Origin: an uncultured Acidobacteriota bacterium | GTDB taxonomy: Bacteria; Acidobacteriota; B3-B38; Guanabaribacteriales; CAZYAF01 | Direction: 5' to 3' | Assembly (NCBI GenBank): GCA_964645975.1 | Contig: CAZYAF010000005.1 | Coordinates: 4,332-68,331, forward strand | Length of the DNA: 64,000 bases | In this document: positions 2,705 through 62,500 of the stretch, piece after piece | How the letters are laid out: each line of letters begins with the position of its first letter | How positions within the stretch are numbered: position 1 is the stretch's first letter | Made by a program: the position numbers and the translations under genes | Notes under the pieces: model-generated | Databases searched by the model: none | What the model was told of the DNA's origin: nothing | What the model saw: only the letters and a program-made list of their open reading frames with translations

Positions 2705-3277
2705 ATGTTAGGAAAAGGATATATTAAAAAGGCCTGGAAACTCTATATGGGCGATTTGGCACCTTTTCTATTGGCCTGGATAATTCTCTCAATAATAAAT
2801 GCTGTTGCTTTTGGTATTCTTACCGGTCCTGTTGCCTGCGGAATGATATATATGACCCTGAAGAAATTACGCGGAGAGAAGATTGACATTTCCGATGCTT
2901 TCAAGGGTTTTGAAAACTTCGGTTATATTTTTCTTGCTGGTATTGTCTACAGTATAATAATAGGAGTTGGGTTTATATTTTTAATCATACCAGGATTTAT
3001 TTTAGGTGCTCTTCTCATTTTTATGTTCCCCTTTATAGTAGATAAGAAGATGGACTTCGTAGAGGCTTTTAAAGCAAGCGTTAATCTTGTTAAAGACAAT
3101 TTGTTAGAGCATACCCTCTTCTTTTTTGTCGCCGCTTTAATCGGTGCCAGCGGGATAATTTTCTTATTTATAGGGATATATTTTACTTTACCTTTATTTT
3201 ATATAGCTTATGGGGTTGCCTATTATAATTTGGTGTATCCTGCAGAAAAAGAAGCTGGCAAGCAGATTAAAACCTAA
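2705..3277 (+). CDS. small polytopic membrane protein, tandem paralog B
   Basis: 190-aa ORF with GAGGAGGTAG RBS; same N-terminus MLGKGYIKKAW and conserved LKK-RGEKI-DAF-GF-NFGY block as paralog A. Confidence 0.5.
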   Translation: MLGKGYIKKAWKLYMGDLAPFLLAWIILSIINAVAFGILTGPVACGMIYMTLKKLRGEKIDISDAFKGFENFGYIFLAGIVYSIIIGVGFIFLIIPGFILGALLIFMFPFIVDKKMDFVEAFKASVNLVKDNLLEHTLFFFVAALIGASGIIFLFIGIYFTLPLFYIAYGVAYYNLVYPAEKEAGKQIKT

Positions 3278-21855: not shown

Positions 21856-24800
21856 ATGTTAACAAAAAATTTTAGATCGTTAAGCTGCTTAGCAGTTGCA
21901 TTGTTAATCTTTTTTGTGTATGTAATTTCCGGATATGCCCAGGAGATCAATCCTGATTTGTACAAGCTGCTTAAGTATCGTTTTATCGGTCCTCAGGGTA
22001 ATCGTTTTATCGCAGTGGTTGGTGTTCCCGGTGATCCCAATATTTGCTATGCCGGAGCAGCATCAGGAGGAATATTCAAGAGCACTGACGGTGGTATTCA
22101 CTGGGAGCCAATTTTTGATGACCAACCGGCTGCTTCCATTGGCTCGCTGGCTATTGCTCCTTCGGATGCCAATATCATCTGGGCAGGAACGGGAGAAATA
22201 TCCATACGCAGCAACATCTCACAGGGAAACGGAATCTACAAATCCACTGATGCGGGAAAAACCTGGAAGCATATGGGTCTTACGAAAACTGGAAGGATTG
22301 GTAGGATAGTAATTCATCCTCATAATCCGGACATCGTCCTTGCTGCATCTATGGGTCACTGCTACGGGCCGCAACAGGAGCGAGGTGTGTTTCGAACCAC
22401 TGATGGAGGCAAAACCTGGGAAAGGGTACTTTTTGCGGACGAAGATACCGGCTGCTCAGATATCATCATGGACCCCAACAATCCTCGTATTCTATTTGCC
22501 GGCATGTGGCCCAAGAGGATATGGCCCTGGCTGGAGAGAAAGAGCGGCGGACCGGGTGGCGGTATCCACATGTCGAGAGACGGTGGCACAACCTGGAAGC
22601 ACCTCACAGGGGGCCTGCCGGAACCACCGATTGGTAAGATAGCCCTTGCCATGTCAAAAAGCAACTCCAACAGGGTCTACGCTTTGATTGAGCATAAAGA
22701 TGGAGTTCTGTGGAGATCGGATGATGGCGGCGAGAGCTGGAAATTGATCAACCGTCACCATGAGCTTACTCACAGACCATCGTATTACACCCGCTGTGCT
22801 GTGGTACCTGACGATTACAATGAGATATATTTTGTAGCCACAACCTTCAGTGTGTCCTATGACGGCGGCGAGACGTTTAAAATTGTACCTCGCAATCAGT
22901 CTCCGGGAGGTGACAACCATGATATGTGGATCGATCCCCTCCTGCCCGACCGAATGATGGTGGGCAACGATAATCCCTGTGTCAGCATATCTCTTAATGG
23001 TGGCAGAACATGGGATAGAGTCCGACTTCCAACTGCTCAGATGTATCATGTACATGTAGACAATAAAATCCCATATTTTGTCTATGGTAATCGTCAGGAC
23101 GGACCCTCCACCAGAGGACCCAGCAATAGCCTTACTGGAAGACATATTCCATCAGGATTGTGGCATTCAGTGGGCGGCTGCGAATGCGGCTTTGCTATAC
23201 CAGATCCGGTGGATAATAACATCGTCTGGTCAGGCTGCTACGAAGGGATACTTGATCGCTTTGATCTAATTACGGGGCATAGTAGATCAGTGAGCGTATG
23301 GCCTGATTCATGTATCGGCACCGAGGCAGCTCCATTGAAATATCGCTTTCAGTGGACTTTCCCCATTGTAATCTCACCCCATGATAATAATAAAGTATTT
23401 GTTGGCAGTCAATATGTCCATCAGACAACCGATGGCGGGCACAGCTGGAAAATTATCAGCCCCGATCTTTCTACCAACAACAAAAAATATCAACAGCCCT
23501 TTGGAGGTATCACTCGCGATGATGAAAGCACCTATTGCTGTTGTATTTTTGCTCTGGCTGAATCGCCCGTGGAAGAGGGACTAATCTGGGCAGGTACCAA
23601 TGACGGGCAGGTACAGGTGACAAGAGATGGAGGAGAACACTGGACCAATGTCACAAAAAATATACCTGATTTTCCGCCCATGGGCACGGTCAGCAACATA
23701 GAGCCATCTCGTTATAATGCTGGGACCTGTTATATCTCAGTGGACTTTCACAATGCCAACATTCGTGATCCCTACGCTTATAAAACGACCGACTATGGTA
23801 ATACATGGGAATTGATAACCAAAGATATTCCCAAAGGTGAATTAAGCTATGTTCACTGTATCAGGGAAGATGCGAAGAGGAAAGGACTCCTTTATCTGGG
23901 AACGGAAAATGCTGTCTATATCTCCTTTGATGACGGCGATCATTGGATGGCTTTACAAAATAACCTTCCCCATGCGCCGGTGCATTGGCTTGTTGTGCAG
24001 GAGCATTTCAATGATTTGGTAATTGGTACCTATGGCCGCGGTTTCTGGATCATGGACGATATTACTCCATTTCAGGGGCTCACATCAGCAGTACTCAAGT
24101 CAGACGTTCATCTCTTCAGTATTCGCCCTGCCTATCGTTTTCAAATGGTTTCAAACCCAATGGGCGAAGAAGATGACTTAAACCTTGGTGAGAACCCACC
24201 TTATGGAGCGTCAATCAATTACTATCTAAAGTCTGCTCCCCAGGGTGATGTCAAAATTTCTATTCTGAATGAGAACGGACAAAATATTAGGACACTTGAT
24301 GGAACAAAGAAAGCGGGCATCAACAGAGTATGGTGGGATTTACAATATGAAACCTTGGATGTGGCAAAGATAAGAACCAGCCCCATCGGAGAGCCGTGGG
24401 TAAAAGTAGGAGCAAAAGGATATCGAACCTTAGTTGGTGTTGGCGGTCCTCCCAGGGTTCTTGTTGCCCCCGGTGTCTATGCGGTAAAGCTTACAGTTAA
24501 TGGGAAAGAATTCACCCAGCAGCTCACCGTGGAAAAAGACCCAAATTCAGCTGGAAGTAAGGAAGATATTCAAAAACAAGTTAAAATGCTATTGGAAATC
24601 CGAGATGATTTTAATAAGCTGGTTAAGATGATTAATCAAGTGGAATGGGTCAGAAAACAGCTTTATGGTTTAATGGAGATTTTAAAAGATGATAAAAGAG
24701 GAGAAGAGATAATAAAAACGGGTAAAGAGCTGGATAAAAAATTTATAGACCTGGAGGAGAACTTTTTTCAGATGAGGCTCACTGATTCCGATAACGATAT

Positions 24801-25029
24801 CCTGCGCTGGCCCTGCAAACTGCATTACAAACTATCCTTTCTTGCTCAACGAGTGGCTCAAGCTGATTTTCCACCGACCACTCAGCAGATTGAAGTACAC
24901 AAAATGTTCAAAGAACAGTTAAGAAATCATCAAAGTCGTTTAAAAGAATTGATTGATAAAGACCTTGGTGCTTTTAACAATATGCTCAAAGAAAAAAATA
25001 TATCGAACATTATTATTCAAACACCTTGA
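21856..25029 (+). CDS. secreted BNR/Asp-box repeat beta-propeller protein (sortilin/Vps10-like), paralog 1
   Basis: 1057 aa; signal peptide; at least 10 Asp-box motifs (STDGGIHW, STDAGKTW, TTDGGKTW, SRDGGTTW, SDDGGESW, TTDGGHSW, TRDGGEHW and others). Confidence 0.7.
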   Translation: MLTKNFRSLSCLAVALLIFFVYVISGYAQEINPDLYKLLKYRFIGPQGNRFIAVVGVPGDPNICYAGAASGGIFKSTDGGIHWEPIFDDQPAASIGSLAIAPSDANIIWAGTGEISIRSNISQGNGIYKSTDAGKTWKHMGLTKTGRIGRIVIHPHNPDIVLAASMGHCYGPQQERGVFRTTDGGKTWERVLFADEDTGCSDIIMDPNNPRILFAGMWPKRIWPWLERKSGGPGGGIHMSRDGGTTWKHLTGGLPEPPIGKIALAMSKSNSNRVYALIEHKDGVLWRSDDGGESWKLINRHHELTHRPSYYTRCAVVPDDYNEIYFVATTFSVSYDGGETFKIVPRNQSPGGDNHDMWIDPLLPDRMMVGNDNPCVSISLNGGRTWDRVRLPTAQMYHVHVDNKIPYFVYGNRQDGPSTRGPSNSLTGRHIPSGLWHSVGGCECGFAIPDPVDNNIVWSGCYEGILDRFDLITGHSRSVSVWPDSCIGTEAAPLKYRFQWTFPIVISPHDNNKVFVGSQYVHQTTDGGHSWKIISPDLSTNNKKYQQPFGGITRDDESTYCCCIFALAESPVEEGLIWAGTNDGQVQVTRDGGEHWTNVTKNIPDFPPMGTVSNIEPSRYNAGTCYISVDFHNANIRDPYAYKTTDYGNTWELITKDIPKGELSYVHCIREDAKRKGLLYLGTENAVYISFDDGDHWMALQNNLPHAPVHWLVVQEHFNDLVIGTYGRGFWIMDDITPFQGLTSAVLKSDVHLFSIRPAYRFQMVSNPMGEEDDLNLGENPPYGASINYYLKSAPQGDVKISILNENGQNIRTLDGTKKAGINRVWWDLQYETLDVAKIRTSPIGEPWVKVGAKGYRTLVGVGGPPRVLVAPGVYAVKLTVNGKEFTQQLTVEKDPNSAGSKEDIQKQVKMLLEIRDDFNKLVKMINQVEWVRKQLYGLMEILKDDKRGEEIIKTGKELDKKFIDLEENFFQMRLTDSDNDILRWPCKLHYKLSFLAQRVAQADFPPTTQQIEVHKMFKEQLRNHQSRLKELIDKDLGAFNNMLKEKNISNIIIQTP

Positions 25030-25309: not shown

Positions 25310-28300
25310 ATGTATTCAAATAACAAATCGTTAACTCCCATCATATTGATTACTGCAATGACCTTCTTTATTGTTTTCGTAATCCCTTTTCACTGCAATG
25401 CCCAGGAGATTAATCCTGAATGGTTTAATCAGCTCAAATATCGTTTCATTGGCCCTCAGGGAAATCGTGTTATTGCGGTGGTTGGTGTTCCTGGAGACCC
25501 AGATGTTTATTACATTGGAGCAGCTTCGGGCGGTATATTTAAAAGCACTGATGGCGGAACTCATTGGAAATCCATTTTTGATGAGCAGCCTGTTTCTTCT
25601 GTTGGTTCTCTGGCAATTGCTCCCTCCGATCCCAATATCATCTGGGCAGGTACTGGTGAGACATTTATTCGCAGCAATATTTCTATCGGAAATGGCATAT
25701 ACAAATCCACTGATAGCGGAAAAACCTGGAAACTTATGGGCTTGGAAAAAACAGGGAGAATAGGCAGGATTATTATAGATCCCCATGACCCAAATATCGT
25801 ATTTGCTGCGGCGATGGGTCATTGCTACGGACCGCAAAAAGAGAGGGGAGTGTACCGCACTATTGATGGTGGCAAGACCTGGGAAAACGTCCTCTTTGTG
25901 GACGAAAACACTGGTTGTTCGGATATAGTTATGGATCCCAATAATCGACGGATTCTTTTTGCTGGCATGTGGCAATTGCAAATAAAGACCTGGGGAAGAG
26001 TGAGTGGCGGACCGGGCAGTGGACTTTATATGTCACGAGATGGTGGTGCTACCTGGAAAAAGCTCAACGATAACGGATTGCCGAAATCACCGATAGGAAA
26101 AATTGCATTGGCCATGTCGCCTGATAATTCCGAACGAATCTATGCTTTAATCGAAAGCGATGAGGGAGTACTCTGGAGGTCAGATGACGGAGGTGACAAC
26201 TGGAAAATGATCAACCATGATCATATGTTGACCCAGCGCCCTCATTATTATTCACGCTGTGCAGTGGCTCCGGATGACTACAATGAAATCTATTTTTGTG
26301 CTGTTCAACTCAGCATCTCTCTCGATGGCGGATTAACATTTAAAGGAGTACGATTGGTGGGTGGTGATAATCATGATATGTGGATCGATCCCCTTAATCC
26401 AGCCCGAATGGTTGTGGGCAACGATCAGGTTGTTGCCATCTCCGTTAATCGTGGTAAGTCATGGTTAGGAGTACCTCTTCCCATTTCTCAAATGTATCAT
26501 GTGGCCGTTGATAATCAAATACCTTATTATGTGTATGGAAACAGACAGGATGGCCCTTCTACCAGGGGGCCAAGCAACAGCTTAACCTATGGAGGGATTG
26601 CTTCTGGAATGTGGCATTCGGTGGGTGGCTGCGAGTGCGGATTTGCAATTCCTGACCCAGTGGATAATAATATCGTCTGGTCTGGTTGTTATGGAGGGTC
26701 GCTGGACCGTTTTGACCTACGAACAGGACATAGTCATAGAGTAAGTGCCTGGCCTGATAATCCTATGGGATGGCCGGCTGCTGATTTAAAATATCGCTTT
26801 CAGTGGACCTTCCCCATAGCAATATCACCCCATGATCATGACAAGGTATATATAGGCAGCCAATATGTACACCAGACAACCGATGGTGGCCATAGCTGGA
26901 AAATTATAAGCCCGGACCTTTCCACAAATGATAAAAGCAAACAACAAAGCTCAGGAGATATTACGCCAGATAACGCCAGCGTTGAATACTGCTGTCTAAT
27001 ATTTGCCCTGGTAGAATCTCCTGTCGAAGAAGGAGTTATATGGGCTGGTACCAATGATGGACTTGTTTGGGTTACTCGCAATGGCGGAGAAAATTGGACA
27101 AATGTCACTAAAAACATACCAAAACTTCCGCCCTGGGGGACAGTGAGCAATATAGAGCCATCGAGATATAATGCCGGTACCTGCTATATTACCATTGATT
27201 TTCATCAGGTTAACAATAGAGAGCCATATATTTATAAGACAGCTAATTACGGAAAGAGCTGGAAATTCATAAGTTCGGATATACCGAAGAGTGTATTAAG
27301 CTATGCTCACTGTATCCGCGAAGACCCGGTAAAAGAGGGATTGCTTTATCTGGGGACGGAAAATGCTCTGTATGTATCCTTTAATGATGGAGAAAATTGG
27401 CTGCCTTTACAGAGTAATTTACCGCATGCTCCCGTGCATTGGCTTGTTGTTCAGGAGCACTTCAATGATCTCGTGGTGGCCACCTACGGACGCGGTTTTT
27501 ATATACTTGATGACATAGCACCGCTTCAACAATTAAATAAAGATATTATTAATTCGGATGTTCATCTTTTTGCTCCACGGTCAGCATATCGTTTTCGATT
27601 TAAAGCAACTCCCATGAGCCAGCCAGGTGATCCATGTGCCGGAAAGAATCCTCCCTATGGTGCTTCTATGAACTACTATGTAAAATCAGAGCCGGAAGAA
27701 AAGGTAAAAATTACCATTCTAAATGAAAAAGGCGAAAAAATAAGAACTCTTGAAGGTACTAAAGAAGTGGGTATAAATCGTGTCTGGTGGGATTTACAAT
27801 ACGAGCCGATTAAAGAAGTTAAATTGAGAACAAGCCCGATTGGCTCACCTCATGTGAAAGTAGGAGAAAAAGGATGGAGACCTTTAGCCACATGGGGCGG
27901 AAAAATTAGCATTTTAGCTGCTCCTGGAACATATACAGTAAAGCTTGCCATAGGTGAAAAGGAATACAGCCAAAAGCTTACAGTTAAAAGGGATCCTAAT
28001 TCAACGGGAACCGAGGAAGACATTGAAGCTCAGACTGAGCTGTTGTTAGAAATTCGCAAGCATATTAACAATGTGGTAGAAATGATTAACCAAATTGAAT
28101 TAATCAGAAAACAGATTTATGATCTAAACGAACTACTGAAAGGGGAAGAAAATTCGGAAACACTCATTAAAGCGGGTAAAGCACTGGATAAGAAGTTTAT
28201 AGCTATAGAGGAAAATCTCATTCAAATGAAACTTACAGGAGCATGGCAGGATGCCTTGAGATGGCCCATTAAGCTCTATGCTAAGTTGAATAGTCTTGCT

Positions 28301-28486
28301 GGTGGTATAAGTAGTTCTGACTTTCCTCCAACTACACAGCAGATTGAAGTATATGAAGTGTTCAAAAGGAAGTTAGCAGAATATAAAAACAGCTACAAAG
28401 AATTACTTGATAAAGATTTTTCTAATTTTAATAATCTTCTAAGAGAAAAAAAATTACCGAATATTATTGCTGTTAAAAACCCTTAA
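25310..28486 (+). CDS. secreted BNR/Asp-box repeat beta-propeller protein (sortilin/Vps10-like), paralog 2
   Basis: 1058 aa; GAGGAGG RBS; roughly 75-80% identical to paralog 1 over the N-terminal region; same Asp-box series. Confidence 0.7.
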   Translation: MYSNNKSLTPIILITAMTFFIVFVIPFHCNAQEINPEWFNQLKYRFIGPQGNRVIAVVGVPGDPDVYYIGAASGGIFKSTDGGTHWKSIFDEQPVSSVGSLAIAPSDPNIIWAGTGETFIRSNISIGNGIYKSTDSGKTWKLMGLEKTGRIGRIIIDPHDPNIVFAAAMGHCYGPQKERGVYRTIDGGKTWENVLFVDENTGCSDIVMDPNNRRILFAGMWQLQIKTWGRVSGGPGSGLYMSRDGGATWKKLNDNGLPKSPIGKIALAMSPDNSERIYALIESDEGVLWRSDDGGDNWKMINHDHMLTQRPHYYSRCAVAPDDYNEIYFCAVQLSISLDGGLTFKGVRLVGGDNHDMWIDPLNPARMVVGNDQVVAISVNRGKSWLGVPLPISQMYHVAVDNQIPYYVYGNRQDGPSTRGPSNSLTYGGIASGMWHSVGGCECGFAIPDPVDNNIVWSGCYGGSLDRFDLRTGHSHRVSAWPDNPMGWPAADLKYRFQWTFPIAISPHDHDKVYIGSQYVHQTTDGGHSWKIISPDLSTNDKSKQQSSGDITPDNASVEYCCLIFALVESPVEEGVIWAGTNDGLVWVTRNGGENWTNVTKNIPKLPPWGTVSNIEPSRYNAGTCYITIDFHQVNNREPYIYKTANYGKSWKFISSDIPKSVLSYAHCIREDPVKEGLLYLGTENALYVSFNDGENWLPLQSNLPHAPVHWLVVQEHFNDLVVATYGRGFYILDDIAPLQQLNKDIINSDVHLFAPRSAYRFRFKATPMSQPGDPCAGKNPPYGASMNYYVKSEPEEKVKITILNEKGEKIRTLEGTKEVGINRVWWDLQYEPIKEVKLRTSPIGSPHVKVGEKGWRPLATWGGKISILAAPGTYTVKLAIGEKEYSQKLTVKRDPNSTGTEEDIEAQTELLLEIRKHINNVVEMINQIELIRKQIYDLNELLKGEENSETLIKAGKALDKKFIAIEENLIQMKLTGAWQDALRWPIKLYAKLNSLAGGISSSDFPPTTQQIEVYEVFKRKLAEYKNSYKELLDKDFSNFNNLLREKKLPNIIAVKNP

Positions 28487-29932: not shown

Positions 29933-31300
29933 TTGATTCAAGAAGAACGAATTAAAATACTCAATAAAAATCCCATAAGAAATAATAAATTTGTAGTTTA
30001 TTGGATGCAGGCTTCACAGAGAGCTGAATATAACCATGCCCTGGAATATGCTATTGCGCAGGCAAATAATTTAAATAAACCACTTATTGTTTTTTTTGGA
30101 TTAACAGATGATTATCCAGAAGCAAACGAAAGGCACTATGCTTTTATGCTGCAAGGTCTCCATGAAGTAGATAAGGTTTTGAGAAACCGTGGAATTAAAA
30201 TGGTCGTTATTCATCAATCACCAGAGTTAGCAATTGTTGAATTGTCAAAGGTAGCTTCATTGATCGTTGTTGATAGAGGTTATTCCAAAATTCAGCAGAA
30301 ATGGCGGAGGATTGCTGCAGAAAAAGTCAACTGTCCTTTGGCACAAATAGAAAGCGATGTAATTGTTCCTGTAGAGCAAGCCTCCTGGAAGGAGGAATAC
30401 TCAGCAGCTACTTTAAGGCCAAAGATAAAAAAGAAGATCAACCATTACCTACTCCCATTAGACCAGAATATTCCAAAAAAGGATGCTTTACATATAGTAT
30501 CCGATTCTATAGTAATTGATAATATAGATCATGTATTGGCAGATTTAAAAATTGACCACAGTGTGAAGAGGGTACAAAACTTTATTGGTGGAACATCGCA
30601 AGCAAAAAAATTACTGCAGGATTTTATTGATAAGAAATTAGCTCATTATTCCAGTGCGAGAAATGATCCTACTGCAGATGGTAGCTCTCACATGAGCCCT
30701 TATCTTCATTTTGGTCAAATATCACCTCTCTATATAGCTCTGAAAATATTGGAAAAAAAAAGCCTAGGAAGTGATACTTATCTTGAAGAGCTTGTTGTTA
30801 GAAGAGAACTTAGCATGAATTTTGTCTTTTACAATCCGTATTATAATCAATTTGGTAGTCTGCCAGAATGGTGCAAAAAAACACTCAAAAAACATGAAAA
30901 AGACCAGAGGGAATTTAGTTATAGCCAGGAGGAATTAGAGAAAGCGCGAACTCACGATCCCTATTGGAATGCTGCTCAAAAAGAGATGGTCTCATCAGGC
31001 AAGATGCAAGGATATATGCGTATGTATTGGGGAAAGAAAATCATTGAGTGGACAAAAAAACCAGAAGATGCCTTCAGGAGAGCACTTTATCTCAATAATA
31101 AATATGAGCTGGATGGTAGAGATCCCAATGGGTTTGCGGGTGTTGCCTGGTGTTTTGGTAAACACGACAGGGCATGGCCAGAACGACCTATTTTCGGCAA
31201 AGTGAGATATATGAATGCCAATGGGCTGCGAAGGAAATTTGATATGGATACTTATGTGGAAAAAATAGAGGCCATCCCATATAAAAATAGCAATATCTAA
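29933..31300 (+). CDS. phr: class II CPD photolyase (deoxyribodipyrimidine photo-lyase)
   Basis: 455 aa; N-terminal VVYWMQASQRAEYNHAL and C-terminal GKVRYMNANGLRRKFDMDTY match class II photolyase signatures; start is TTG in track, exact start uncertain. Confidence 0.7.
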   Translation: MIQEERIKILNKNPIRNNKFVVYWMQASQRAEYNHALEYAIAQANNLNKPLIVFFGLTDDYPEANERHYAFMLQGLHEVDKVLRNRGIKMVVIHQSPELAIVELSKVASLIVVDRGYSKIQQKWRRIAAEKVNCPLAQIESDVIVPVEQASWKEEYSAATLRPKIKKKINHYLLPLDQNIPKKDALHIVSDSIVIDNIDHVLADLKIDHSVKRVQNFIGGTSQAKKLLQDFIDKKLAHYSSARNDPTADGSSHMSPYLHFGQISPLYIALKILEKKSLGSDTYLEELVVRRELSMNFVFYNPYYNQFGSLPEWCKKTLKKHEKDQREFSYSQEELEKARTHDPYWNAAQKEMVSSGKMQGYMRMYWGKKIIEWTKKPEDAFRRALYLNNKYELDGRDPNGFAGVAWCFGKHDRAWPERPIFGKVRYMNANGLRRKFDMDTYVEKIEAIPYKNSNI

Positions 31301-35269: not shown

Positions 35270-35830
35270 CTATTTATCTATTGTTATTACGTATCCTAGT
35301 TTTTCTAAAATTTCAATTGCTCTTTCTAAGGAACTTTGGTCAATTTTCCAGGCAAAAGATTTTGCTTTTTCCCTGATTTCTTCAGGAGTTATCGGTTTTC
35401 CTTCTTTATCAATGAAATAGTAAGCTTTTGCTGCTACAGATAAATCCATATAATCAATATTTCCTAACTGTTTCAATTCTGAGAAAAAATTTTTTATTCC
35501 ATTCCATTCATCTTTATATTTTTCTGCAATCCTTTTAGCTATCTTCTCTCCTGCTGGTGTTAATTCACAATCAAATCTTTTTCTTTCAAAACCATGGCTA
35601 TTGAAAATTCCGAGGTCTTCCTCTTTTTCATTGATTATTCCTATAGCGATTAAGTTTGATAATTCAATATTTATATCTGGCGAATAGGGACCGTAATAAT
35701 GTGGAATAAATCTCAAATCTAGACCTATATTTTTGTTAAGGAAATACATACATTTTTGCAGATATGTCTTCCCTTTGATATTGTTGTCATTTGCTAATAA
35801 TGCTAATAATATTAATTCATTAGCTTTCAT
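35270..35830 (-). CDS. Panacea (DUF4065/SocA)-like domain protein, translationally coupled to upstream HD-domain gene
   Basis: start set to ATG 35830 (MKANELILL) with AAAAAGGAG RBS; 11-nt overlap with HD gene stop; block TYLQKCMYFL...HYYGPYSPDI resembles Panacea domain core. Confidence 0.4.
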   Translation of the reverse strand: MKANELILLALLANDNNIKGKTYLQKCMYFLNKNIGLDLRFIPHYYGPYSPDINIELSNLIAIGIINEKEEDLGIFNSHGFERKRFDCELTPAGEKIAKRIAEKYKDEWNGIKNFFSELKQLGNIDYMDLSVAAKAYYFIDKEGKPITPEEIREKAKSFAWKIDQSSLERAIEILEKLGYVITIDK

Positions 35831-37154
35831 TAGCGACTCCTTTTTTATTTTTAAAATAATCACTTATTATATTATATATGATTTTATCATGTTTTTTATA
35901 CATTTTTTTCTTATCAACATTATCTTTATATTCTAAAGGAGCATAGCACTCTATAAATCTTTCTGACTTTTCTAAAATCTCATATAATTTAGATTCGTAT
36001 TTAATTTCTACTGGTTTGTCTGCTTTAACTACAAATAAATCAAGACCTTTATTTTTCTCGAAAATTCCCATAGAAATAATCTTTAAAATAACATCATTTT
36101 TATTTTCACTAATATTTCCAGCTATTTTATCTTCTAATTCTGCCTTTTCTTTTGTATCCATATTTTCTATTTGTAATCTTATATCTTCTTCGAAATTATT
36201 TATTTTTTGTGAAAAAACTCTTTTTAGCAATTTTCTATTGTAGAGATTGGAAAAGATTCTTCCGGCGTTAGTATTTTGATAATTTTCAAGTAATCTTATT
36301 GTTAATTTTTCGTCATTCCAATTTAAATATTCCTTCAAATATTCTGGTGAATCTTTGTAAATATAAATTTCTTTTAAAAAATCAATATTATCTACTTCAA
36401 CACCTAATTCAATTGCACGAACTATCATTGAATCAGTTATCAGTCTTACCTTATGCATATATACTTGAGAATCTATATAATATTTTGCTAAGAGAAATTG
36501 TTCAAAAGCTCTGATCCCATCTTCATGTATCATTAAAGAACGATCATATTTATCAATTGGTTCAGCTTTTATACTCTTGATAAGCTGATAATAATCATAA
36601 ATACCATATTTAACTCCGCAATGATAACTATCTCTTAGCAAGTAATCTATCTTATCTACATCTAAAGGTCCTGATATAATTTCTCGCAAATAACTTTCCT
36701 CATACCCTTCTTTTATTAAAGAAGAAATTGCTCTACATCTATTTTTTCCCAATATTCCGCACAATTCTTCATTTTGCTCTATTATTTTGCAAGTTATGGT
36801 TTCATGAAAATTGATTTTTCCGTGAATTCCTATATTTTCAGAAAGATTTTTCATAACCTCTTCTGATACATGAGAAAAAGGTCCATGACCTATATCATGC
36901 AATAATGCTGCAAATCGTAAGATTTCTTTTTTATCTTGGTCAATTTTTAGCTGTTCTGCAATTAATCCAGCTAAGTGCATAACCCCTAATGAATGCTCAA
37001 ATCTTGTATGATTTGCTCCGGGATAGACTAAATTTGCTAATGCTAACTGCTTGATTCTTTTTAATCTTTGAAATACTTCGGTGTCTATTATTTTTTGCTC
37101 AGTTTCATTAGGATGAATAAATCCATATATTGGATCACGAATATCAAATCTCAT
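35820..37154 (-). CDS. HD-domain phosphohydrolase, dGTPase/SAMHD1-like dNTP triphosphohydrolase family
   Basis: 444 aa; HTRFEHSLGV, LLHDIGHGPFSH and DVDKIDYLLRD motifs characteristic of dNTPase-type HD proteins. Confidence 0.7.
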   Translation of the reverse strand: MRFDIRDPIYGFIHPNETEQKIIDTEVFQRLKRIKQLALANLVYPGANHTRFEHSLGVMHLAGLIAEQLKIDQDKKEILRFAALLHDIGHGPFSHVSEEVMKNLSENIGIHGKINFHETITCKIIEQNEELCGILGKNRCRAISSLIKEGYEESYLREIISGPLDVDKIDYLLRDSYHCGVKYGIYDYYQLIKSIKAEPIDKYDRSLMIHEDGIRAFEQFLLAKYYIDSQVYMHKVRLITDSMIVRAIELGVEVDNIDFLKEIYIYKDSPEYLKEYLNWNDEKLTIRLLENYQNTNAGRIFSNLYNRKLLKRVFSQKINNFEEDIRLQIENMDTKEKAELEDKIAGNISENKNDVILKIISMGIFEKNKGLDLFVVKADKPVEIKYESKLYEILEKSERFIECYAPLEYKDNVDKKKMYKKHDKIIYNIISDYFKNKKGVANES

Positions 37155-53583: not shown

Positions 53584-54948
53584 CTATAGAGTATTCTCCA
53601 CCTCTTTTACTGCATCGATAAAAATATCAATCCCTTTCTTTGCCAGTTCTTCTGTGAGCACTAATGGAGGAAGGAATCGTGCTACATTATCATAATGGCC
53701 TCCTATCTCAATAAGAAGTCCGCTCTGATGGCAAAGAGTCCTCACTTTTTTAGCCAGATCCGTTGCTGGCTCTTTCGTATTTTTATCTTTGACAAATTCA
53801 ACCCCAAGCATCAAACCTTTCCCCCGTACCTGACCTATAATATTCGAATCTTTTTCCAGCTCTTTAAGCGTAGCCAGCATTAATCCACCAAGTTGAAGGG
53901 AATAGAAAGCTAAATTGTTTTTTACCATGAATTGTAACCCGGCGTTTCCTGCAGCATAGGCAATCACATTGCCCCGAAAGGTGCCGATATGCTTACCGGG
54001 TGGCCATATATCAGCTTCCTCTTTGTAAGCAATACAGGAAATGGGGAATCCCGCGCCACCAAGAGCTTTGCTCAAGGTTACAACATCGGGCACTATTCCT
54101 GAATGTTCGAAGGCAAACATCTTGCCCGTCCGGCAGAGACCAGCTTGTACCTCATCAACAATCATAATAATTTCATATTTATTGCAGATATCCCTGATCT
54201 TGGGAATAAAGAGGTCCGGTGGAACAATTGAGCCACCTTCCCCCTGGATGGCTTCTACGATTATTGCCGCCGGTTTTCCCACGCCTGAATGAGGGTCTTC
54301 AATAATATGCTCCAGATATTGAGCACAGTCGAGCTCACAGGTTGCCGGTTCTTTGTTAAAAGCACAACGATAGCAATAGGCGTAAGGTACAAAATGAACC
54401 TCCGGTACCATGGGCAGGAATTCTTCCTTGAAACCCAGACCGCTGGATAGTGAAAGCGCCCCGGCAGTCATTCCATGGTAAGAGCCTTCGAAGGAGATCA
54501 TAGGCTGCCGACCGGTGTTAAACTTTGCCAGCTTCATGGCTGCTTCCACTGCATCCGATCCTGTGGGGCCGCCAAACTGAACTCTGTTGAGCTGTTGAGG
54601 CAGCAAATTTAATAGGGTTTCTACTAACGCTCTGCGAGCTGGATTGGGAAAGTCGAGAAAATGGGTAAGGTCGAAGAGCTGCTCGGCAGCAGCATCAATA
54701 ACATCGGGATTTGCATGCCCCACGTTCATCACCCCGGCACCGCCGAAAAAGTCTATGTAGATGTTACCATCAACATCTTCCACCGTGGCACCCTTGGCTC
54801 GACTTACTGCCATGGGCATCCCCTTGGGATAAGAAACAGCAGCGCCTTCATTCATGGATTGATAGTCAAGAAACTCCTGTGACTTCGGTCCCGGTGGAGT
54901 AATATTTATTAACGGTGCATTAGCAAACGATAACTTCGTGAAATCCAT
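53584..54948 (-). CDS. class III (omega) aminotransferase, PLP-dependent
   Basis: 454 aa; DEVQAGLCRTGKMFA and TLSKALGGAGFP (PLP-lysine) motifs. Confidence 0.8.
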   Translation of the reverse strand: MDFTKLSFANAPLINITPPGPKSQEFLDYQSMNEGAAVSYPKGMPMAVSRAKGATVEDVDGNIYIDFFGGAGVMNVGHANPDVIDAAAEQLFDLTHFLDFPNPARRALVETLLNLLPQQLNRVQFGGPTGSDAVEAAMKLAKFNTGRQPMISFEGSYHGMTAGALSLSSGLGFKEEFLPMVPEVHFVPYAYCYRCAFNKEPATCELDCAQYLEHIIEDPHSGVGKPAAIIVEAIQGEGGSIVPPDLFIPKIRDICNKYEIIMIVDEVQAGLCRTGKMFAFEHSGIVPDVVTLSKALGGAGFPISCIAYKEEADIWPPGKHIGTFRGNVIAYAAGNAGLQFMVKNNLAFYSLQLGGLMLATLKELEKDSNIIGQVRGKGLMLGVEFVKDKNTKEPATDLAKKVRTLCHQSGLLIEIGGHYDNVARFLPPLVLTEELAKKGIDIFIDAVKEVENTL

Positions 54949-55345
54949 ATCTCCCCTCCCGAGGGATAAATTATAATAATCTATAAATGCAAATAGGCGT
55001 ATCTATTATAAACTATTATAAGTCAGGTATGCAAAGCTTATACTCATGATGGCTTGATTTTTTAATTATTTAATAGCTTTATCAAAATATTCTCGAAATC
55101 AGATATTTTTATATCAGAAAATAAATAATCCATTTAATAAAGGTGGATGTCCGAAAAGATATTGGTGCCTCATCATGGGACATATTCTTGAAATAGACAC
55201 AATGTTCGCCTCCCAGATATGCTAAGGCGGCTTGCAGGGACATGAAAAATAAATTGATATTTTTATAAAATTTTCTTGATTTGCACTGCTCCTGTGCTAA
55301 AATAAATGAAAAGTTTGAGTAGGAGGACTTAGACCACAGGGTCGG

Positions 55346-55375
55346 AGATGCTCCGAAAGGAGCATCTTTTATTTT
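55346..55375 (+). terminator. orphan terminator-like hairpin in 700-bp gene-free region (possible sRNA 3' end)
   Basis: stem AGATGCTCC / GGAGCATCT with GAAA loop followed by TTTTATTTT; no plus-strand CDS upstream. Confidence 0.4.
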
Positions 55376-55460
55376 ACATTTCCACAAGCTTCCGTCATAC
55401 TCTTCGTAGATAATCTTAAAGCAAATTAATAATGTCTCCACAATAAGGTATCTGCACTTC

Positions 55461-55481
55461 CCCTACACAGCCTGCCCTTCT
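55461..55481. repeat. dispersed copy of CCCTACACRG-CTGCCCTT repeat element
   Basis: ccctacacagcctgcccttct matches 63761..63780 (ccctacacggctgccctttg) at about 20 of 22 positions. Confidence 0.45.
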
Positions 55482-55658
55482 CAGTTTAACTTATTTCATG
55501 AAAAAGAGCATCTTTCGGACGACTAAATAGGATTTCCATACACTGATTTCCAATGCAGAATTATTGGAAGATCCGAAGATAAATCCCTGAAACTTTTTCC
55601 CTCAGAGATGGAAAAGTAGCATAACAAAAATTTATGATTACAACTTAAGAAGCAAGCT

Positions 55659-57452
55659 TTACAGGCTCTTTTTTATATTCTCGGCAGGTTTCTTACCAAG
55701 GAGCTGGCTGAGCTCTTCCAGACTGGCTTCCCTTATTTTTTTAATTGAACCGAAGTGTTTGAGCAAAAGTTCCTTTCGCTTAGTACCAATACCAGGGACG
55801 TTGTCAAGCTCCGAGACAATGGTACGCTTTTTTCGTAGTTTGCAATGGTACGCATGGGCGAAGCGATGCGATTCATCTCGAATCCGTTGTATCAGCCGCA
55901 GCGCTTCCGAGCCCTCTTGCAGCTTCAACGGTTCCTTTACTGTAGAGGCATAGAGTATCTCCTCCCGTTTGGCAATGGCTGCTGTGGGCATATTCTCCAA
56001 TCCCAATGCTGTCAGTACATCCCGTGCAGCCGAGAGCTGCCCTTTGCCGCCATCAAGCAGCACCATATCAGGCAGTGCCTTCTCCTCGCGCAACAGCCGC
56101 TTATAACGTCGCGAAACCACCTCGGCCATGGAGGCAAAGTCATCCAGTCCCTTCACTCCCTTTATCTTAAACCTGCGATAATCCGCTTTCTTGGCTTTGC
56201 CATCCTCAAACACCACCAATGAGGCTACCGCATCGGTGCCCGAAATGTTCGAGATATCAAAGGCCTCAATCCTCCTCGGTAGTTCGGGCAAATTCAACGC
56301 CTGCTTAAGCGCATACAGCACGCCTTCTCCCTCTTCAATAGCAAACTTATTGCGAAAAGATATCCGAGCATTATCCAGTGCCAACTGCAAAAGCTTCCGC
56401 TTCTTTCCCCGGCTGGGCGAGGTGATGTACACCCGATTTCCGCGCAAACGTGTTAACCATTGCTCCAGCAGCGGTCGCTCCTCAAAATCGAGCTGCACGT
56501 ATATTTTCGGTGGGATGGGCTGATCCCCATTGTAATATTGTTTGATCATGGAGCTGATGAATTCCTCAGGCTGAAAATCCACCAGCCCTTTCCAGAAGAA
56601 CTCACGCCGTCCTACTACCAGACCCTTGCGTATATGAAAGACCTGCAAGCACACCTTATCAGCCAGATGATAGAAGCCGAAGAGGTCCTCCTCTTCCATT
56701 CGAGTGGAAGCCATGCGCTGCTTGCTGGCCTGCCGCTCCAGCACTTTGATGGCATCCCGATAGTGCGCCGCCTTTTCGAATTTCTCCTCACCCGATGCTT
56801 TCTCCATCTTCAGCTTAAGTCGTTCAAGTAATTCCCTGTTCTTGCCTTCTAACAGAAGCCGCACATCCTCAACCGCTGCTTCATACTCCTCTTCGGTTGT
56901 CAGCGCCGCACACGGTGCCAGACAGCGGTTAATCTGGTAATCGAGGCAGGGGGTGAAGCGTTTACCCGGCAGTTTCAAGTCGCACTGCCTGAGCTGCATA
57001 TGGCGGGCAATAAGGCGCATGGTCTTGCGAGCCAGGCTGGCCGGGATATAAGGCCCGAAATAGAGCGCTCCATCCTTTTTCACCCGGCGCACTAACCGAA
57101 CTCGCGGATAGAGCTCGTTGATGCTCAACCGCAGATAGGGGAAGTTTTTATCATCCCGCAGCCGAACATTATATTTGGGCTGTTCCTTTTTTACCAGGTT
57201 GTTCTCCAGAATGAGGGCTTCCAGCTCGCTTTCGGTGATGATGAATTCGATATCAGCCGCCTCGCTGAGCATGGTTTCCTGCTTGATGGGAGCTTCGCCC
57301 GGTGCTTGAAAATAGGAGCGTACCCGATGGCGCAAGGATTGAGCTTTGCCAATATATATGGCCTTTTCCAGTGCATCTTTAAATATGTAAACGCCGGGTT
57401 TTAGGGGGAAAGATTCGACCTTTTTTTTGAGGGTATCCAGGATGTTATTCAT
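55659..57452 (-). CDS. uvrC: excinuclease ABC subunit C
   Basis: 597 aa; N-terminal GIY-YIG (PGVYIFKD...IYIGKA) and C-terminal helix-hairpin-helix; start overlaps uvrB stop by 1 nt (TAATG). Confidence 0.9.
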   Translation of the reverse strand: MNNILDTLKKKVESFPLKPGVYIFKDALEKAIYIGKAQSLRHRVRSYFQAPGEAPIKQETMLSEAADIEFIITESELEALILENNLVKKEQPKYNVRLRDDKNFPYLRLSINELYPRVRLVRRVKKDGALYFGPYIPASLARKTMRLIARHMQLRQCDLKLPGKRFTPCLDYQINRCLAPCAALTTEEEYEAAVEDVRLLLEGKNRELLERLKLKMEKASGEEKFEKAAHYRDAIKVLERQASKQRMASTRMEEEDLFGFYHLADKVCLQVFHIRKGLVVGRREFFWKGLVDFQPEEFISSMIKQYYNGDQPIPPKIYVQLDFEERPLLEQWLTRLRGNRVYITSPSRGKKRKLLQLALDNARISFRNKFAIEEGEGVLYALKQALNLPELPRRIEAFDISNISGTDAVASLVVFEDGKAKKADYRRFKIKGVKGLDDFASMAEVVSRRYKRLLREEKALPDMVLLDGGKGQLSAARDVLTALGLENMPTAAIAKREEILYASTVKEPLKLQEGSEALRLIQRIRDESHRFAHAYHCKLRKKRTIVSELDNVPGIGTKRKELLLKHFGSIKKIREASLEELSQLLGKKPAENIKKSL

Positions 57453-59449
57453 TAATCTACAAACAGCTCAATGGCTTTTCTTTTAAGTTCTTTAATGCGG
57501 TCTCGAAGCTGAGCGGCGCGCTCAAATTCCAGCTTTTTTGCCGCATCTTGCATTTCCTTATCCAGTTTTTTGATGAGCTGGCGCCGTTCCTCGCTGGTCA
57601 GATATTCCTCTCGCTCCTCAGCGGCCATGGGTATTTCATAATAATCCGCTTCGTATACGCTGGTAAGGACATCCTTGATGGATTTCTTAATGGTCTCCGG
57701 GGTTATGTTATGAGCTTTGTTGTATTCTATCTGAATCTGGCGGCGGCGATTGGTCTCGTCTATGGTCTGTTTAATTGAATTGGTGAGATTATCGGCGTAA
57801 AGCACTACCTGACCATTAACGTTGCGGGCTGCTCGACCGGATGTCTGGATTAGGGAAATGGTGGAACGCAGGAATCCCTCCTTATCGGCATCGAGAATAG
57901 CCACTAGCGAGACCTCAGGTAGATCCAGACCCTCACGCAGGAGATTGATTCCGATAAGGACGTCGAAGTCGCCGCGGCGGAACTCGCGGATAATCTTGAC
58001 CCGGTCCAGGGTATCAATGTCGGAATGGAGATAGCGTACCTTAACGCCGAGCTCCTCATAATATTCCGTCAGGTCTTCGGCCATGCGCTTGGTGAGGGTA
58101 GTGACCAGCACTCGCTCTTTTTGCTCCGCTCTCTCACGGATGCGCTGCAGCAGGTCGTCCACCTGGTTCTGTGCCGGCTGGATGATTATCTCCGGGTCAA
58201 TGAGGCCGGTTGGTCGAATTACCTGCTCCACTACTTCGCCACCAGTCTTCTCCAACTCGTAAGGACCGGGAGTGGCTGAGACGTAAATAATCTGCTTCGC
58301 CCGCTCCTTGAACTCTACGAATTTCAGCGGGCGGTTGTCCAGTGCCGACGGAAGGCGGAAACCGTATCTCACCAGGGTGGACTTGCGGGAATGGTCGCCC
58401 TCGTACATGCCGCGCAGTTGGGGGATGGTAACGTGGCTTTCATCTATTACAATGAGGGCATCACGCGGAAGATAGTCCAGCAAACAGGGCGGCGGCTCTC
58501 CCGGCTTTCGGCCGGTGAGGTGGCGCGAGTAGTTTTCGATGCCCTGGCAGTAGCCGATCTCCTTCATCATCTCCAGGTCGTAGAGGGTGCGCTCGCGGAT
58601 GCGCTGAGCTTCTACCAGCTTGTTCTCTTTGAGCAATTTTTTATGGTGCACCTCCAGCTCTTCGCGAATGGACTGAAGGGCGCTGCGCATTTGTTCCTCG
58701 GGTGTAACATAATGGGATTTGGGGTAGATGGGCACCCGTTGGACTTCTTCCCTCACCTTGCCGGTGAGAGGGTCCACCAGCCTGAGGTGGTCAATCTCGT
58801 CACCGAAGAGCTCGATGCGCACGGCTTCGTCGGCATAGGGTGGGAAGACTTCAACCACATCGCCGCGCACGCGGAAGGTGCCGCGCCCGAAGCTCATGTC
58901 GTTGCGCTCGTACTGTATGTTCACCAGCTTGTGCAATATCTCCCGGCGAGAGATCTCCATGCCGTGTTCCAGCAGGAGCAGCATGCCGTAGTAGGCTTCC
59001 GGAGAGCCCAGGCCGTAGATGCATGAGACGCTGGCCACGATGAGCACATCGCGGCGCTCGAAGAGGGCGCGGGTGGCGGAGTGGCGCATGCGGTCGATTT
59101 CGTCGTTGATGTCGGCATCCTTGGCAATGTAGGTGTCTGTGGCGGGTACGTAGGCTTCGGGCTGGTAGTAGTCGTAGAAGCTGACGAAGTATTCAACTGC
59201 GTTCTGCGGGAAGAAGCTCTTGAACTCCTGATAAAGCTGAGCAGCCAGGGTCTTGTTGTGGGAGATGACGATGGTGGGGAGCCTGACCTGCTCCACCACC
59301 TTGGCCACGGTGAAGGTCTTGCCCGAGCCAGTGACGCCCAGCAGCACCTGATGCTGCTTGCCTTGCAGCACTCCCCGGGCTAACTCCTCGATAGCCGTGA
59401 CCTGGTCGCCTTTGGGCTCAAACTCCGAGATAAGCTTAAATTCACTCAT
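57452..59449 (-). CDS. uvrB: excinuclease ABC subunit B
   Basis: start set to ATG 59449 ([16 protein letters not shown]); Walker [13 protein letters not shown]-like helicase motifs, C-terminal UVR domain; upstream 45 codons of track ORF are non-homologous. Confidence 0.9.
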
Positions 59450-59580
59450 GGTTATTAAACAAAACAGTACCAAAAAACAGTAATAAATTGTAGTACAGGA
59501 TGAAATAATAGTCAATTTAGCAATAAATGATAATAATATAAAAAACGATATAAGAATTTTAATTAATAAACGGGAAGATA

Positions 59581-62500
59581 TCAATTAATTTCTATAAGCT
59601 GATTTAGTGCATCATTTATTTCTTTAGCATTAAATTTAGCTGATACAATATATTTTGTTAATTCATCTTTTTTAATAGAATCAATAAGATTTTCAAGAAA
59701 TTCAGAAATGGTTTTATAGTATTTCTCATTCTTTAATTGAGAAAATTCAGCGATAAGATAATTTTTTACTTCAATAACAGCATCACCAAGATTTTCCTCT
59801 TGCTTCCTAAATTTAATCCTATATCGATTATATAACTCAATTTCAAATTGATTTTTGGATGAGATTAATTGTTGAATTTTATGGTAATGACCAACTATTT
59901 TTTCCAAAGCTATAAGCAAAGCTTGGATTTTAAGGTTAATTTCATTTTTTGGATAAGGTTCAAATTGAATTTGTGGAAGATAGCTCCAAATTTCTTTTGG
60001 TGGTTCTCTTGGCACTAACCATTCCCAAGTACTTAGGTTATTAGGATCAAATTGGGAAATATTATTAGAACTTATTACGTAAGCACCTGGAATAAACCTT
60101 TTATCATTGAAAATAGGAATAATACAGAAAAATCCTGCTATATCTTTGACTTTATGAAGTTCTTTTATAACTTTTAATATAGATTCTATTAATAGAGAGG
60201 GATTATCTACAGAAAAAGCAAAAGGAAGATAAGTTATAGGATATTCAATATGTTCACCAGATGGAAGTATTATTTTCATACCTTCTACTTCAAGAGTAGA
60301 AAGTGCTTTGGATAGGAGATTAAGCTTTTCCTGACGTTTTCTCTGCCTTATAGTTTTAATATACAAATTAATATTTTGCAGAGGTTTTTCAGGAGGATTA
60401 AGTATCCATACTTCTAATAAATCCGCTAAACACTTATAAGCTTTTAATTCTAAGGAATCTAATTCGCATGAATTGAAATAGTCTGGTGCAATATTGAAAA
60501 TATATTTAAAAACAAGATGCATTTTTGGAAGCTGTTTTAAAGAATCAAAAAAGTTATGTACCGCTAATCTGCCTGTTTTAATTTCTTTCTTTCTTAAATA
60601 TTCTATTAATTGTATAAAAAAATTTTTGAAACTTAAAGAGCACTTATCAGCTGCATTTTCCTTTAGAATATCTTTTAAAGGTTGTTTAATTTCTTTCCCC
60701 ATTCTTTTAAAGTTTTCAATAGAAATAGATGGAGCAAATTTTTGCGACAGTTCTAACTCCTCTATAAGTCTACCATCATCGAATAAAGATTTAATATCAT
60801 ATTTTTTATTAGTTAAGATACAATTTAAAAATTTTGAAAAATTCTGTACAAAGAGCAATGATTTTTTTCGAAGAACGTACCAATGTTCTTCTAATTTATA
60901 AAAAGTATCAGTAAAATATGCTCTCTCTATAATATTACGCCATACTATATTCTTTTCAACATCAAATTCTAAAGGTAGATTTTTTTGGGGAATATTTTTA
61001 TATGTCTCATCTATAGACGGCTTTAAGCCTAAAGGCAGAAGCCATAAGCCTTGTGATTTATAATTTCTACAGAAGGGGATAGCAGCTCGTAATTTCTGAA
61101 GTTTTGATACCGCTTGATCATTAAAGCTTATCTTATTATCTGTTTCTGGTATAAACTCCATATATAACTCATTATTTTTAATTTCTAATGTAACACAGTC
61201 TGTATGTAATTTTAAATATCCTATAAGGGTATCAGTATTTTTTAAAAACCAATTTTTATATGATCTTTCATCATATCTATAAAGACCTTGAGTAAATTTG
61301 CAAAGAGTGTCTATATTAACTTCAAAAAACCTATTATATAAAAATATATTATTTTTAACTTTTTTCCAACTAGACAATTCAATATTGCATAAATAACACC
61401 AATCAAGAATTTGTCCTATTTTAGCTAAATTATTTCGGATTATATCAATATCCATGTATGCATTTATTTTGCTTAAAAAATTACTGCAGAATTCTATTCC
61501 TCTTGGAATATTAGTAAATCTTGTTTTTATTTCTTTTAACTTTCTAAAATTTTCAAAAAGATCTCCTTCCATTTCAGCTATAATATCTATCATATCTATT
61601 TTTGCTAATGGTATAAAAGCAGTGCTTAGCCAAAATGGACCGACTGATCCAACTAACTTGTATGCTTCATCAAATAGTCCACGATTAGCTTCAAAGAATT
61701 TTCTTTCACCTGCTTCAAAAATACCATCGAGGAAAGCTAAAATTGTATCTATTTTTGCATCTTTTGCCTTCTCAATTAGTCCATTCATAAAAAGTTCTGT
61801 ATCGAGTTCTTTTTTGGATATAGCATTTAATACAAAATTACTCATATTTTCTGATGGAACAGCATCTAAGATTGAAAGTGCTGTCCTTGCAGGATTAAGA
61901 TACTGCTCATGAAGGATCTTAGAAAGGTGATCAGATCGTACCCAATGAAGCTCAATAAGCAGTTCGTCTTCTATGCGCAGATATTCTTCGGATAAAGATT
62001 GCAGTACTTGTTGTGGATCATGTCTTAGTTGTATCTTATCAAGGAGTTTATTAACCAAAATAGGTGATCCCAATTCATGAGCCAAAGATACTCTGCGTAA
62101 TATTTCTATTTTAGCTGGATCTTCATTATGAGCTGTGATCTGTTTTACTTGGTCTCGAAGTCGTTCTTCGAGCATTTTTCCATGTGTGATAAAATAAACA
62201 TATTCCATCAGCAGAGGAGGCTCTCCAATTTTCTCGAATGCCCATTCTGCTGAATCAACAGAGTCGTGAATTCGATTTTGGATTTGAAAAGATTTAAATA
62301 TATCCTTTGCTTCATTGAGATCAAGTGCTGGTTCAAGTATTTCATAATTTGTTAAGCTTAGACGAGCAGTTCTATACCAATCTTCTTCTCTGATTGAGAC
62401 TAAAACATAGAAACCAAGAGAAGCACATTCTTGTGCTATATTTGGCCAGAGTCGAGTCTGCCAGCTGGCATTGTCTATAAGTAATAAAATTGGTATTCCC

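Follow-up and report, generated by a model that had tools for sequence, protein, structure and literature searches.

The concept of amelioration for horizontally acquired genes reportedly goes back to Lawrence and Ochman in 1997. Nucleotide excision repair (NER) genes move between lineages, and lateral spread of uvr genes is known, an example being the bacterial uvrABC genes found in mesophilic archaea. Here, 64,000 nucleotides of contig CAZYAF010000005.1 from an uncultured Acidobacteriota bacterium (hereafter the window; 38% G+C overall) were analyzed, in which uvrB and uvrC form a closely coupled pair (uvrBC) of a base composition foreign to its surroundings. uvrBC resembles ameliorating genes in its atypical G+C, codon usage and G+C at third codon positions (GC3), in its sharp borders and in substitutions directed toward the composition of the recipient. 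It differs from typical ameliorating genes in being a core housekeeping repair operon rather than accessory cargo, in having an apparent donor in the same clade, in lacking flanking mobility genes, a tRNA site and repeats, and in showing no tree incongruence at the available resolution. The archaeal uvr transfers are cross-domain and show clear phylogenetic incongruence, whereas the compositional offset of uvrBC in the window is twice as large and its phylogeny is congruent at the clade level.

Adjacent uvrB-uvrC pairs are also found in Desulfobacterota, Myxococcota and Methylomirabilota (e.g. loci L002, L026, L031, L032 and L043); unlike the pair in the window, these are more distant (UvrB 60-68%, UvrC 37-46% identical) and compositionally typical of their own genomes. 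The closest counterparts are the RuvX-YceG-hyp-uvrB-uvrC loci (hyp, hypothetical protein) of three sister lineages (L086-88, L169 and L090-92), which share gene order, close coupling and a similar uvrBC G+C and GC3, and which hold the closest proteins outside the host lineage (UvrB 72-76%, UvrC 55%). In the sister loci the pair matches surroundings of 48-50% G+C, whereas the pair in the window stands 13-17 points above its background, has lost the RuvX-YceG context and lies between variable low-GC genes. It is rather probable that a GC-richer relative within the clade supplied uvrBC long ago, by acquisition or replacement, and that the pair is now ameliorating.

The uvrB-uvrC pair and its composition

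uvrB and uvrC are a standard NER pair, predicted to encode the damage-verification helicase and the dual-incision nuclease, respectively (Table 1). The Pfam set of UvrB was complete, with all domains above the curated cut-offs (PF04851, ResIII; PF00270, DEAD; PF17757, UvrB_inter; PF00271, Helicase_C; PF12344, UvrB; PF02151, UVR), and that of UvrC was likewise complete (PF01541, GIY-YIG; PF02151, UVR; PF22920 and PF08459, UvrC_RNaseH and UvrC_RNaseH_dom; PF14520, HHH_5). UvrB was 58-68% identical across residues 1-660 to its counterparts in a scan of the genomes of 80 species, and 69-76% identical to UvrB of named Acidobacteriota, Aminicenantes and Thermodesulfobacteriota. The original prediction had read an overlap of the uvrB stop and uvrC start codons (TAATG) directly from the sequence, and the junction gtagatTAATGaataac contains this 1-nt overlap. 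The end coordinate of one gene equals the start coordinate of the other likewise in four further strains of the host lineage (L084, L085, L089 and L093), and in the sister lineages the genes are separated by 4-5 nt (L086, L169) or overlap by 17 nt (L090). The claim that the two genes form one operon is supported by the retention of the overlap in all host-lineage strains and of the uvrB-uvrC adjacency in the sister lineages. Both genes are probably carried on one transcript from a putative single promoter, with translation coupled via TAATG. The promoter-like site TTGACT-17-TACAAT was kept in an alignment of the five strains; its function as a promoter, and the co-transcription of uvrBC, we infer from sequence. 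A terminator-like hairpin was seen as a weak candidate past uvrC, and this stretch was missing or different in L084 and hence unconserved.

An alternative uvrB start at TTG 59584 (710 aa; 57452..59584), present in the NCBI/Logan and in one JGI gene call, was rejected in favor of ATG 59449. Homology to every UvrB, also between strains, starts at the ATG; the 45 extra codons cover the AT-rich promoter region, overlap the stop codon of the upstream gene, which encodes an nSTAND_NTPase5 protein (hereafter the STAND gene), and are unconserved across strains.

The G+C content of uvrB was 0.554 (GC3 0.70) and that of uvrC 0.510 (GC3 0.594). The 45 other long open reading frames (ORFs) of the window had a mean G+C of 0.385 (standard deviation 0.043, maximum 0.467) and a mean GC3 of 0.344 (standard deviation 0.070, maximum 0.515), against which the GC3 z-scores of uvrB and uvrC were 5.1 and 3.6, respectively. 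Genes for ribosomal proteins and translation (rpsB, tsf, pyrH, frr, rplM and rpsI) measured 0.36-0.42 G+C (~40% had originally been estimated for ribosomal-protein genes) and ~0.30-0.34 GC3; the photolyase gene (29933..31300) and rmuC were host-like or just mildly raised. The abrupt change that had been placed near 59450..59580 was recovered as a step from 0.60 to 0.22 G+C between ~59350 and 59650, in effect at the uvrB start codon, and is steeper because the upstream STAND gene is itself atypically AT-rich. The earlier figure of ~60% G+C or more for both genes applied to 300-nt intervals inside uvrB only (0.56-0.61), uvrC peaking at 0.55. The adjacent giant gene, for which ~25% had been given, was 0.296 G+C, with local values of 0.22-0.37.

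High G+C is not intrinsic to uvrB and uvrC themselves. At 80 control loci from other species, uvrB lay within ~0.08 of its flanks in G+C, the offset of +0.16 in the window being the largest. Archaeal uvrB in this set (L048, Methanoperedens; L053, ANME-2) lay 0.06-0.08 above its flanks, which agrees with the known bacterial origin of these archaeal genes. uvrB and uvrC fitted the codon tables of relatives of 48-50% G+C more closely than that of the host (log-likelihood ratios of -0.22 and -0.14 bits per codon, respectively), as did 0 of the 45 other genes of the window. The FYMINK/GARP amino-acid ratio of the GTPase Der, taken as a host marker, was 1.66 in the host vs 0.95-1.01 in the Aminicenantes clade, and that of UvrB and UvrC was 1.08-1.09 vs 0.94-0.99: a strong AT-driven amino-acid shift marks host Der but is nearly absent from UvrB and from UvrC, which is just moderately conserved. 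uvrBC has the base composition, codon choice and amino-acid content of a genome of ~50% G+C or higher. A stable gene-specific codon bias, one of three explanations originally offered, is disfavored, as the bias is not common to ribosomal, translation or other repair genes (photolyase, RmuC), and uvrBC is off equilibrium, with an excess of G/C-to-A/T changes of 2.0-3.05:1 that lies beyond stationary simulations (see below).

Composition changes sharply, and at the ends of genes, as it would if two organisms had been joined during assembly or binning at 59450-59600 and 55450-55660. Such a chimera, the second explanation originally offered, was rejected and is regarded as extremely improbable. 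The junctions STAND-uvrB-uvrC-aminotransferase-RmuC-LiaF-ABC were identical in three assemblies built independently of one another and from different reads, JGI 3300008516 (contig Ga0111033_1049796, 68.9 kb, of which the window is a part; order given to RmuC) and Logan SRR3091743 and SRR3085435. The same architecture and anomaly recurred in strains from other samples diverged by 3-13% in UvrB (identity to the window: L084, 97%; L089, 96%; L093, 93%; L085, 87%), and the shared AT-rich putative promoter was contiguous with GC-rich coding sequence in all of them. In L084, L089 and L085, uvrBC lies upstream of the same aminotransferase-RmuC block; L093 is a short contig ending after uvrC and so has no downstream flank, its uvrBC GC3 being alike. 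Across these strains, GC3 was 0.67-0.70 in uvrB and 0.60-0.64 in uvrC vs 0.30-0.47 in the flanks.

One further contig, L094 (901-2694; JGI 3300028837), had a 339-bp in-frame deletion in uvrB (window 57698..58036), with no microhomology at the junction, and was otherwise free of mismatches to the window over the ~9 kb compared and the remainder of uvrB. The resulting protein is 113 aa shorter and gave no Pfam hit to Helicase_C or UvrB. This is either a repair-defective variant in a subpopulation or an assembly fault.

Relatives, substitution direction and the history of the block

The nearest UvrB proteins outside the host lineage were those of lineage X (76%; 'Acidobacteriota bacterium' MCD6451171.1), P0011 (72%) and lineage Y (72-73%; labeled 'Candidatus Aminicenantes' and 'candidate division B38'), followed by many Thermodesulfobacteriota at 68-70%. 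The locus order hyp-RuvX-YceG-hyp (441-457 aa)-uvrB-uvrC was found in the three sister lineages, namely in L086-88 (X, UvrB 76%), L169 (72%) and L090-92 (Y, 72-73%), whose genomes are 0.48-0.50 G+C and whose uvrBC GC3 (0.57-0.67) matches that of their flanks; in the host lineage uvrBC stands without the RuvX-YceG-hyp context. Because these loci are shared among the sister lineages, uvrB-uvrC coupling is an ancestral trait of the Aminicenantes/Acidobacteriota clade. At 8 of the 80 control loci, uvrC followed uvrB at a distance of ≤400 nt, all of them from Desulfobacterota, Myxococcota or Methylomirabilota.

In a neighbor-joining tree of UvrB, the host grouped with lineage X (98% bootstrap), and both grouped with Aminicenantes/B38 (Y; 100%). 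The best matches of host Der beyond its lineage were Aminicenantes/B38/Acidobacteriota metagenome-assembled genomes (50-51%), and the best non-self match of Aminicenantes Der in a collection of 5.8 billion proteins was the host lineage (53%). UvrB and Der indicate one clade, so that a distant phylum was not the source of uvrBC; at the available resolution the host is a deep, AT-rich member or sister of the Aminicenantes/Acidobacteriota clade. This check of congruence used one host marker, Der, and covers the clade level; in a search for the Der of lineage X, no match could be assigned to X. The original prediction had named high GC3 in all highly conserved genes, together with a uvrBC phylogeny congruent with that of the ribosomal proteins, as observations that would refute its reading; the phylogeny proved roughly congruent, but the conserved genes lack high GC3.

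P0008, a UvrB of 899 aa with a high bit score, was considered as a donor and rejected, being the protein of a 70% G+C organism with a DNA identity of just ~70-73%. In this UvrB (L168:10001-12700; 0.70 G+C organism) the region of UvrB_inter and UvrB_3rd is duplicated internally; the gene lies at a contig end, so that the duplication is possibly an assembly artefact.

The direction of third-position change was determined among the three closest strains by taking singleton changes as derived, either by majority rule or with confirmation by the 93% outgroup. Parsimony with the 87% strain L085 as outgroup was dropped, because third positions were near saturation (identity 0.39-0.58) and saturation skews the inferred direction toward the common base. 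In uvrBC, majority rule gave 206 G/C-to-A/T vs 103 A/T-to-G/C changes (ratio 2.0; binomial p = 5e-9), with an excess in the same direction on each branch and in both genes, and outgroup confirmation gave 134 vs 44 (ratio 3.05). Seven flanking genes gave 207 vs 176 by majority rule (ratio 1.18; Fisher p = 8e-4 vs uvrBC). Because parsimony over-counts common-to-rare changes in base-skewed sequence, simulations with a simple HKY-plus-gamma model were run on a matched tree. With GC3 stationary at 0.68, they produced ratios of 1.25-1.30 by majority rule (upper 97.5% limit 1.65) and 1.5-1.6 with outgroup confirmation (upper limit 2.4), whereas decay of GC3 from 0.76 toward 0.40 produced 2.05-2.36 and 2.9-3.3, respectively, matching the observed values. 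uvrBC is losing G+C, and its flanks are near equilibrium. The G/C-to-A/T rate per G/C site was 0.24 in uvrBC vs 0.26 in the flanks; this equality indicates that uvrBC is not shielded from mutation and hence has spent less time in an AT-biased background. Net loss amounted to ~2.7 GC3 points per terminal branch of uvrBC. By rough extrapolation under simple models, on which no weight should be placed, the uvrBC of the common ancestor may have had a GC3 near 0.75-0.8 and the donor roughly 55-60% G+C or more.

Vertical inheritance with no transfer would require that the lineage drifted from ~50% to 38% G+C, that uvrBC lagged behind through some local force and that the operon was moved by rearrangement. 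Such a force could be GC-biased gene conversion, a stronger constraint or synonymous-site selection, e.g. for low amounts of UvrB and UvrC through rare GC-ending codons. This history, which we regard as unlikely, is in keeping with the placement of UvrB by its tree and of Der by its best hits in one clade, with the nearly equal distances among host, X and Y in both UvrB and UvrC, and with the relatives' uvrBC, whose GC3 is already the highest of its surroundings. By majority rule, uvrBC also had a higher apparent rate of A/T-to-G/C change per A/T site than the flanks (0.25 vs 0.155), but this excess shrank on outgroup confirmation, 43% of these changes looking like mis-polarized parallel changes. 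A lag is further contradicted by the equality of the G/C-to-A/T rates and by a significant net loss of G+C that stationary simulations did not reproduce, which together indicate that the composition of uvrBC is not being maintained; given the same rates and starting point, uvrBC would be expected to have reached equilibrium, as its flanks did. Such a lag is not seen in other genes that are conserved, highly expressed or involved in repair, and loss of the RuvX-YceG context requires a separate event.

The borders of the block bear on a second alternative, a variant of transfer in which native uvrBC was repeatedly overwritten by homologous recombination with alleles of GC-richer relatives, at a hot spot bounded by variable flanks; the overwriting would keep uvrBC GC-rich. 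Both flanks vary among strains, and the breakpoints of homology coincide with the putative promoter and with the uvrC stop: in the alignment of the five strains, whose upstream genes are of three kinds, the shared DNA starts at ATTGACTAT, precisely at the -35 box of the putative promoter, and the DNA shared with L084 breaks right past the uvrC stop and resumes ~260-330 nt further. The conserved unit is promoter-uvrB-uvrC, between two cargo slots. In the neighboring rmuC, third-position identity was 0.715 between the window and L089 (8668-9702) vs 0.875 between the window and L084, and GC3 was raised to 0.585 in L085 (11680-12720), oddities that suggest local recombination beside the block. Repeated overwriting of uvrBC itself is nevertheless considered improbable: uvrBC of the five strains formed one clean clade (main nodes at 99-100% bootstrap) with divergences broadly parallel to those of the flanks, no close allele was found in a GC-normal genome (the nearest being 76% identical), and every branch showed a net loss of G+C rather than a reset.

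Acquisition from a GC-richer donor, the last of the explanations originally offered, fits best, not as a recent event or one from a distant phylum, but as an old one within the clade. Its age is seen in the sharing of the block by strains down to 87% UvrB identity; third positions of uvrBC among these carriers are as low as 54-58% identical, which indicates that the block is old. An ancestor of the lineage would have taken up the promoter-uvrB-uvrC module from a GC-richer relative in the same clade, and the incoming module would have replaced or re-supplied its own copy. The insertion site, away from the RuvX-YceG-hyp context, would be one that today has hot spots for strain-variable low-GC cargo on either side, and uvrBC would since have been inherited vertically with its G+C sinking toward the host equilibrium. 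The transfer event itself and the donor are what we infer here.

Several results weigh against an acquisition. The test for gene-tree incongruence came out negative, UvrB falling within the Aminicenantes/Acidobacteriota clade in a tree whose shape is compatible with vertical descent, and host, X and Y were roughly equidistant from one another (UvrB 76/72/72%, UvrC 55/55/51%). The donor search found no UvrB closer than 76% outside the host lineage; the scan of species genomes yielded none above 68% identity, so that no donor could be named. An empty site was seen in no strain, and the uvrBC block is carried by all five host-lineage strains found. No meaningful direct or inverted repeats flank uvrBC, its neighbors include no integrase, and the 64 kb contain no tRNA genes. 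Parsimony counts are biased in base-skewed sequence, and the correction came from the HKY-plus-gamma simulations alone. The host baseline for GC3 is 64 kb of the genome. No Rfam families marking uvrBC as mobile were found, and a query of metagenome contigs with the neighboring aminotransferase, aimed at deeper relatives or an empty site, gave matches in unrelated GC-rich organisms alone, without synteny, and no further host-lineage loci.

A reading that joins loss and transfer would have native uvrBC lost from the RuvX-YceG-hyp locus, a NER-less period contributing to the drop from ~50% to 38% G+C and to the drift of Der, and the genes later recaptured from a GC-normal relative into the cargo hot spot. 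We give this sequence of events little credence.

Flanking slots and other features of the window

The upstream slot holds the STAND gene in the window and in L085, homologous upstream DNA in L093, zinc-ribbon genes in L084, and non-homologous DNA with a different low-GC gene in L089. A PADLOC scan of the STAND protein gave no match; the gene is probably strain-variable defense-type cargo, and no assignment to a known defense system is claimed. The downstream slot, between uvrC and the aminotransferase gene, contains HicA, an unknown gene and a helix-turn-helix gene in L085 (8515-9453), a SLFN_AlbA_2 gene of 0.27 G+C with a weak PADLOC hit to PDC-S50 in L089 (5707-6816), and ~600 nt of non-coding DNA in L084. 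An unannotated 110-aa ORF within this slot in the window (55109..55441, minus strand) had no Pfam hit. On the plus strand, the GC-rich hairpin GGAGATGCTCCGAAAGGAGCATC (55344..55369) is perfect and runs into T-rich sequence. It lies within an aminotransferase leader of ~420-450 nt (~54950..55370) whose sequence is almost the same between the two closest strains only, is poorly conserved in L089 and L085, and had no Rfam match.

The nearest relatives of the aminotransferase outside the lineage were 56-72% identical, most of them, including the closest nine, lying on unrelated contigs of 0.49-0.66 G+C and without synteny. This gene is possibly an older, further-ameliorated acquisition; its relatives in GC-richer organisms hint that uptake from such organisms may have occurred more than once in the host genome.

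Table 1. Features of the uvrBC locus and the host marker in the window
Feature	Coordinates	Strand	Description and evidence
uvrB, 665 aa	57452..59449	-	ATG 59449 to TAA stop ending at 57452; translation, Pfam, homology, composition
uvrC, 597 aa	55659..57452	-	ATG 57452 to stop at 55659; translation, Pfam, composition
TAATG junction	57450..57454	-	uvrB stop and uvrC start share 1 nt; read directly from sequence
Promoter-like site, TTGACT-17 nt-TACAAT	59487..59515	-	~38 nt upstream of uvrB ATG; consensus scan, 10/12 matches
Weak terminator-like hairpin, candidate only	55583..55609	-	~50 nt past uvrC stop; pattern scan
nSTAND_NTPase5 protein, 1315 aa	59581..63528	-	Upstream neighbor outside the operon; Pfam PF25199; G+C 0.296, GC3 0.18
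Downstream variable slot, uvrC to aminotransferase	54949..55658	.	710 nt, no called gene in the window, G+C 0.30-0.38
Class-III aminotransferase	53584..54948	-	G+C 0.467, most GC-rich after uvrBC; second-lowest host codon fit
Der GTPase, host marker	13152..14459		Relatives inside the lineage 81% and 73%

Elsewhere in the window, two overlapping minus-strand genes (35270..37154) had a G+C of 0.27-0.29 and a GC3 of 0.17-0.23 and matched dGTPase (E = 4e-16) as well as DarG and PDC-M19A (E = 1e-7) in PADLOC; they likely constitute a second low-GC defense islet. Tandem plus-strand genes (21856..25029 and 25310..28486) encode BNR/Sortilin-Vps10 proteins of ~1057 aa with hydrophobic N-terminal stretches, and G+C is locally raised to 0.51 in their region (22001-23000). 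Neighboring plus-strand paralogues of ~190 aa (1650..2216 and 2705..3277) are membrane-protein-like and have near-identical beginnings (MLGKGYIKKAW...).

Meaning of the uvrBC anomaly

uvrBC consists of ordinary genes in a clade-typical operon with a textbook ameliorating pattern, and involves no new mechanism or gene family. Three traits are a little unusual: a core repair operon is involved, the probable donor belongs to the same clade, for which reason the tree is silent, and the decay is visible directly across strains. Because the anomaly can be traced across several strains, it is useful for calibrating rates of amelioration in uncultured lineages. It also calls for caution with metagenome data, since binning and chimera filters could wrongly split or discard a contig of this kind. 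If the loss-and-regain reading were true, the GC-rich operon would mark an episode of repair loss and its reversal, and the uvrB deletion of 339 bp in L094 would suggest that the genes are again weakly selected. Under the favored history of within-clade acquisition, housekeeping genes would be replaceable within a clade without a signal at the level of the tree.

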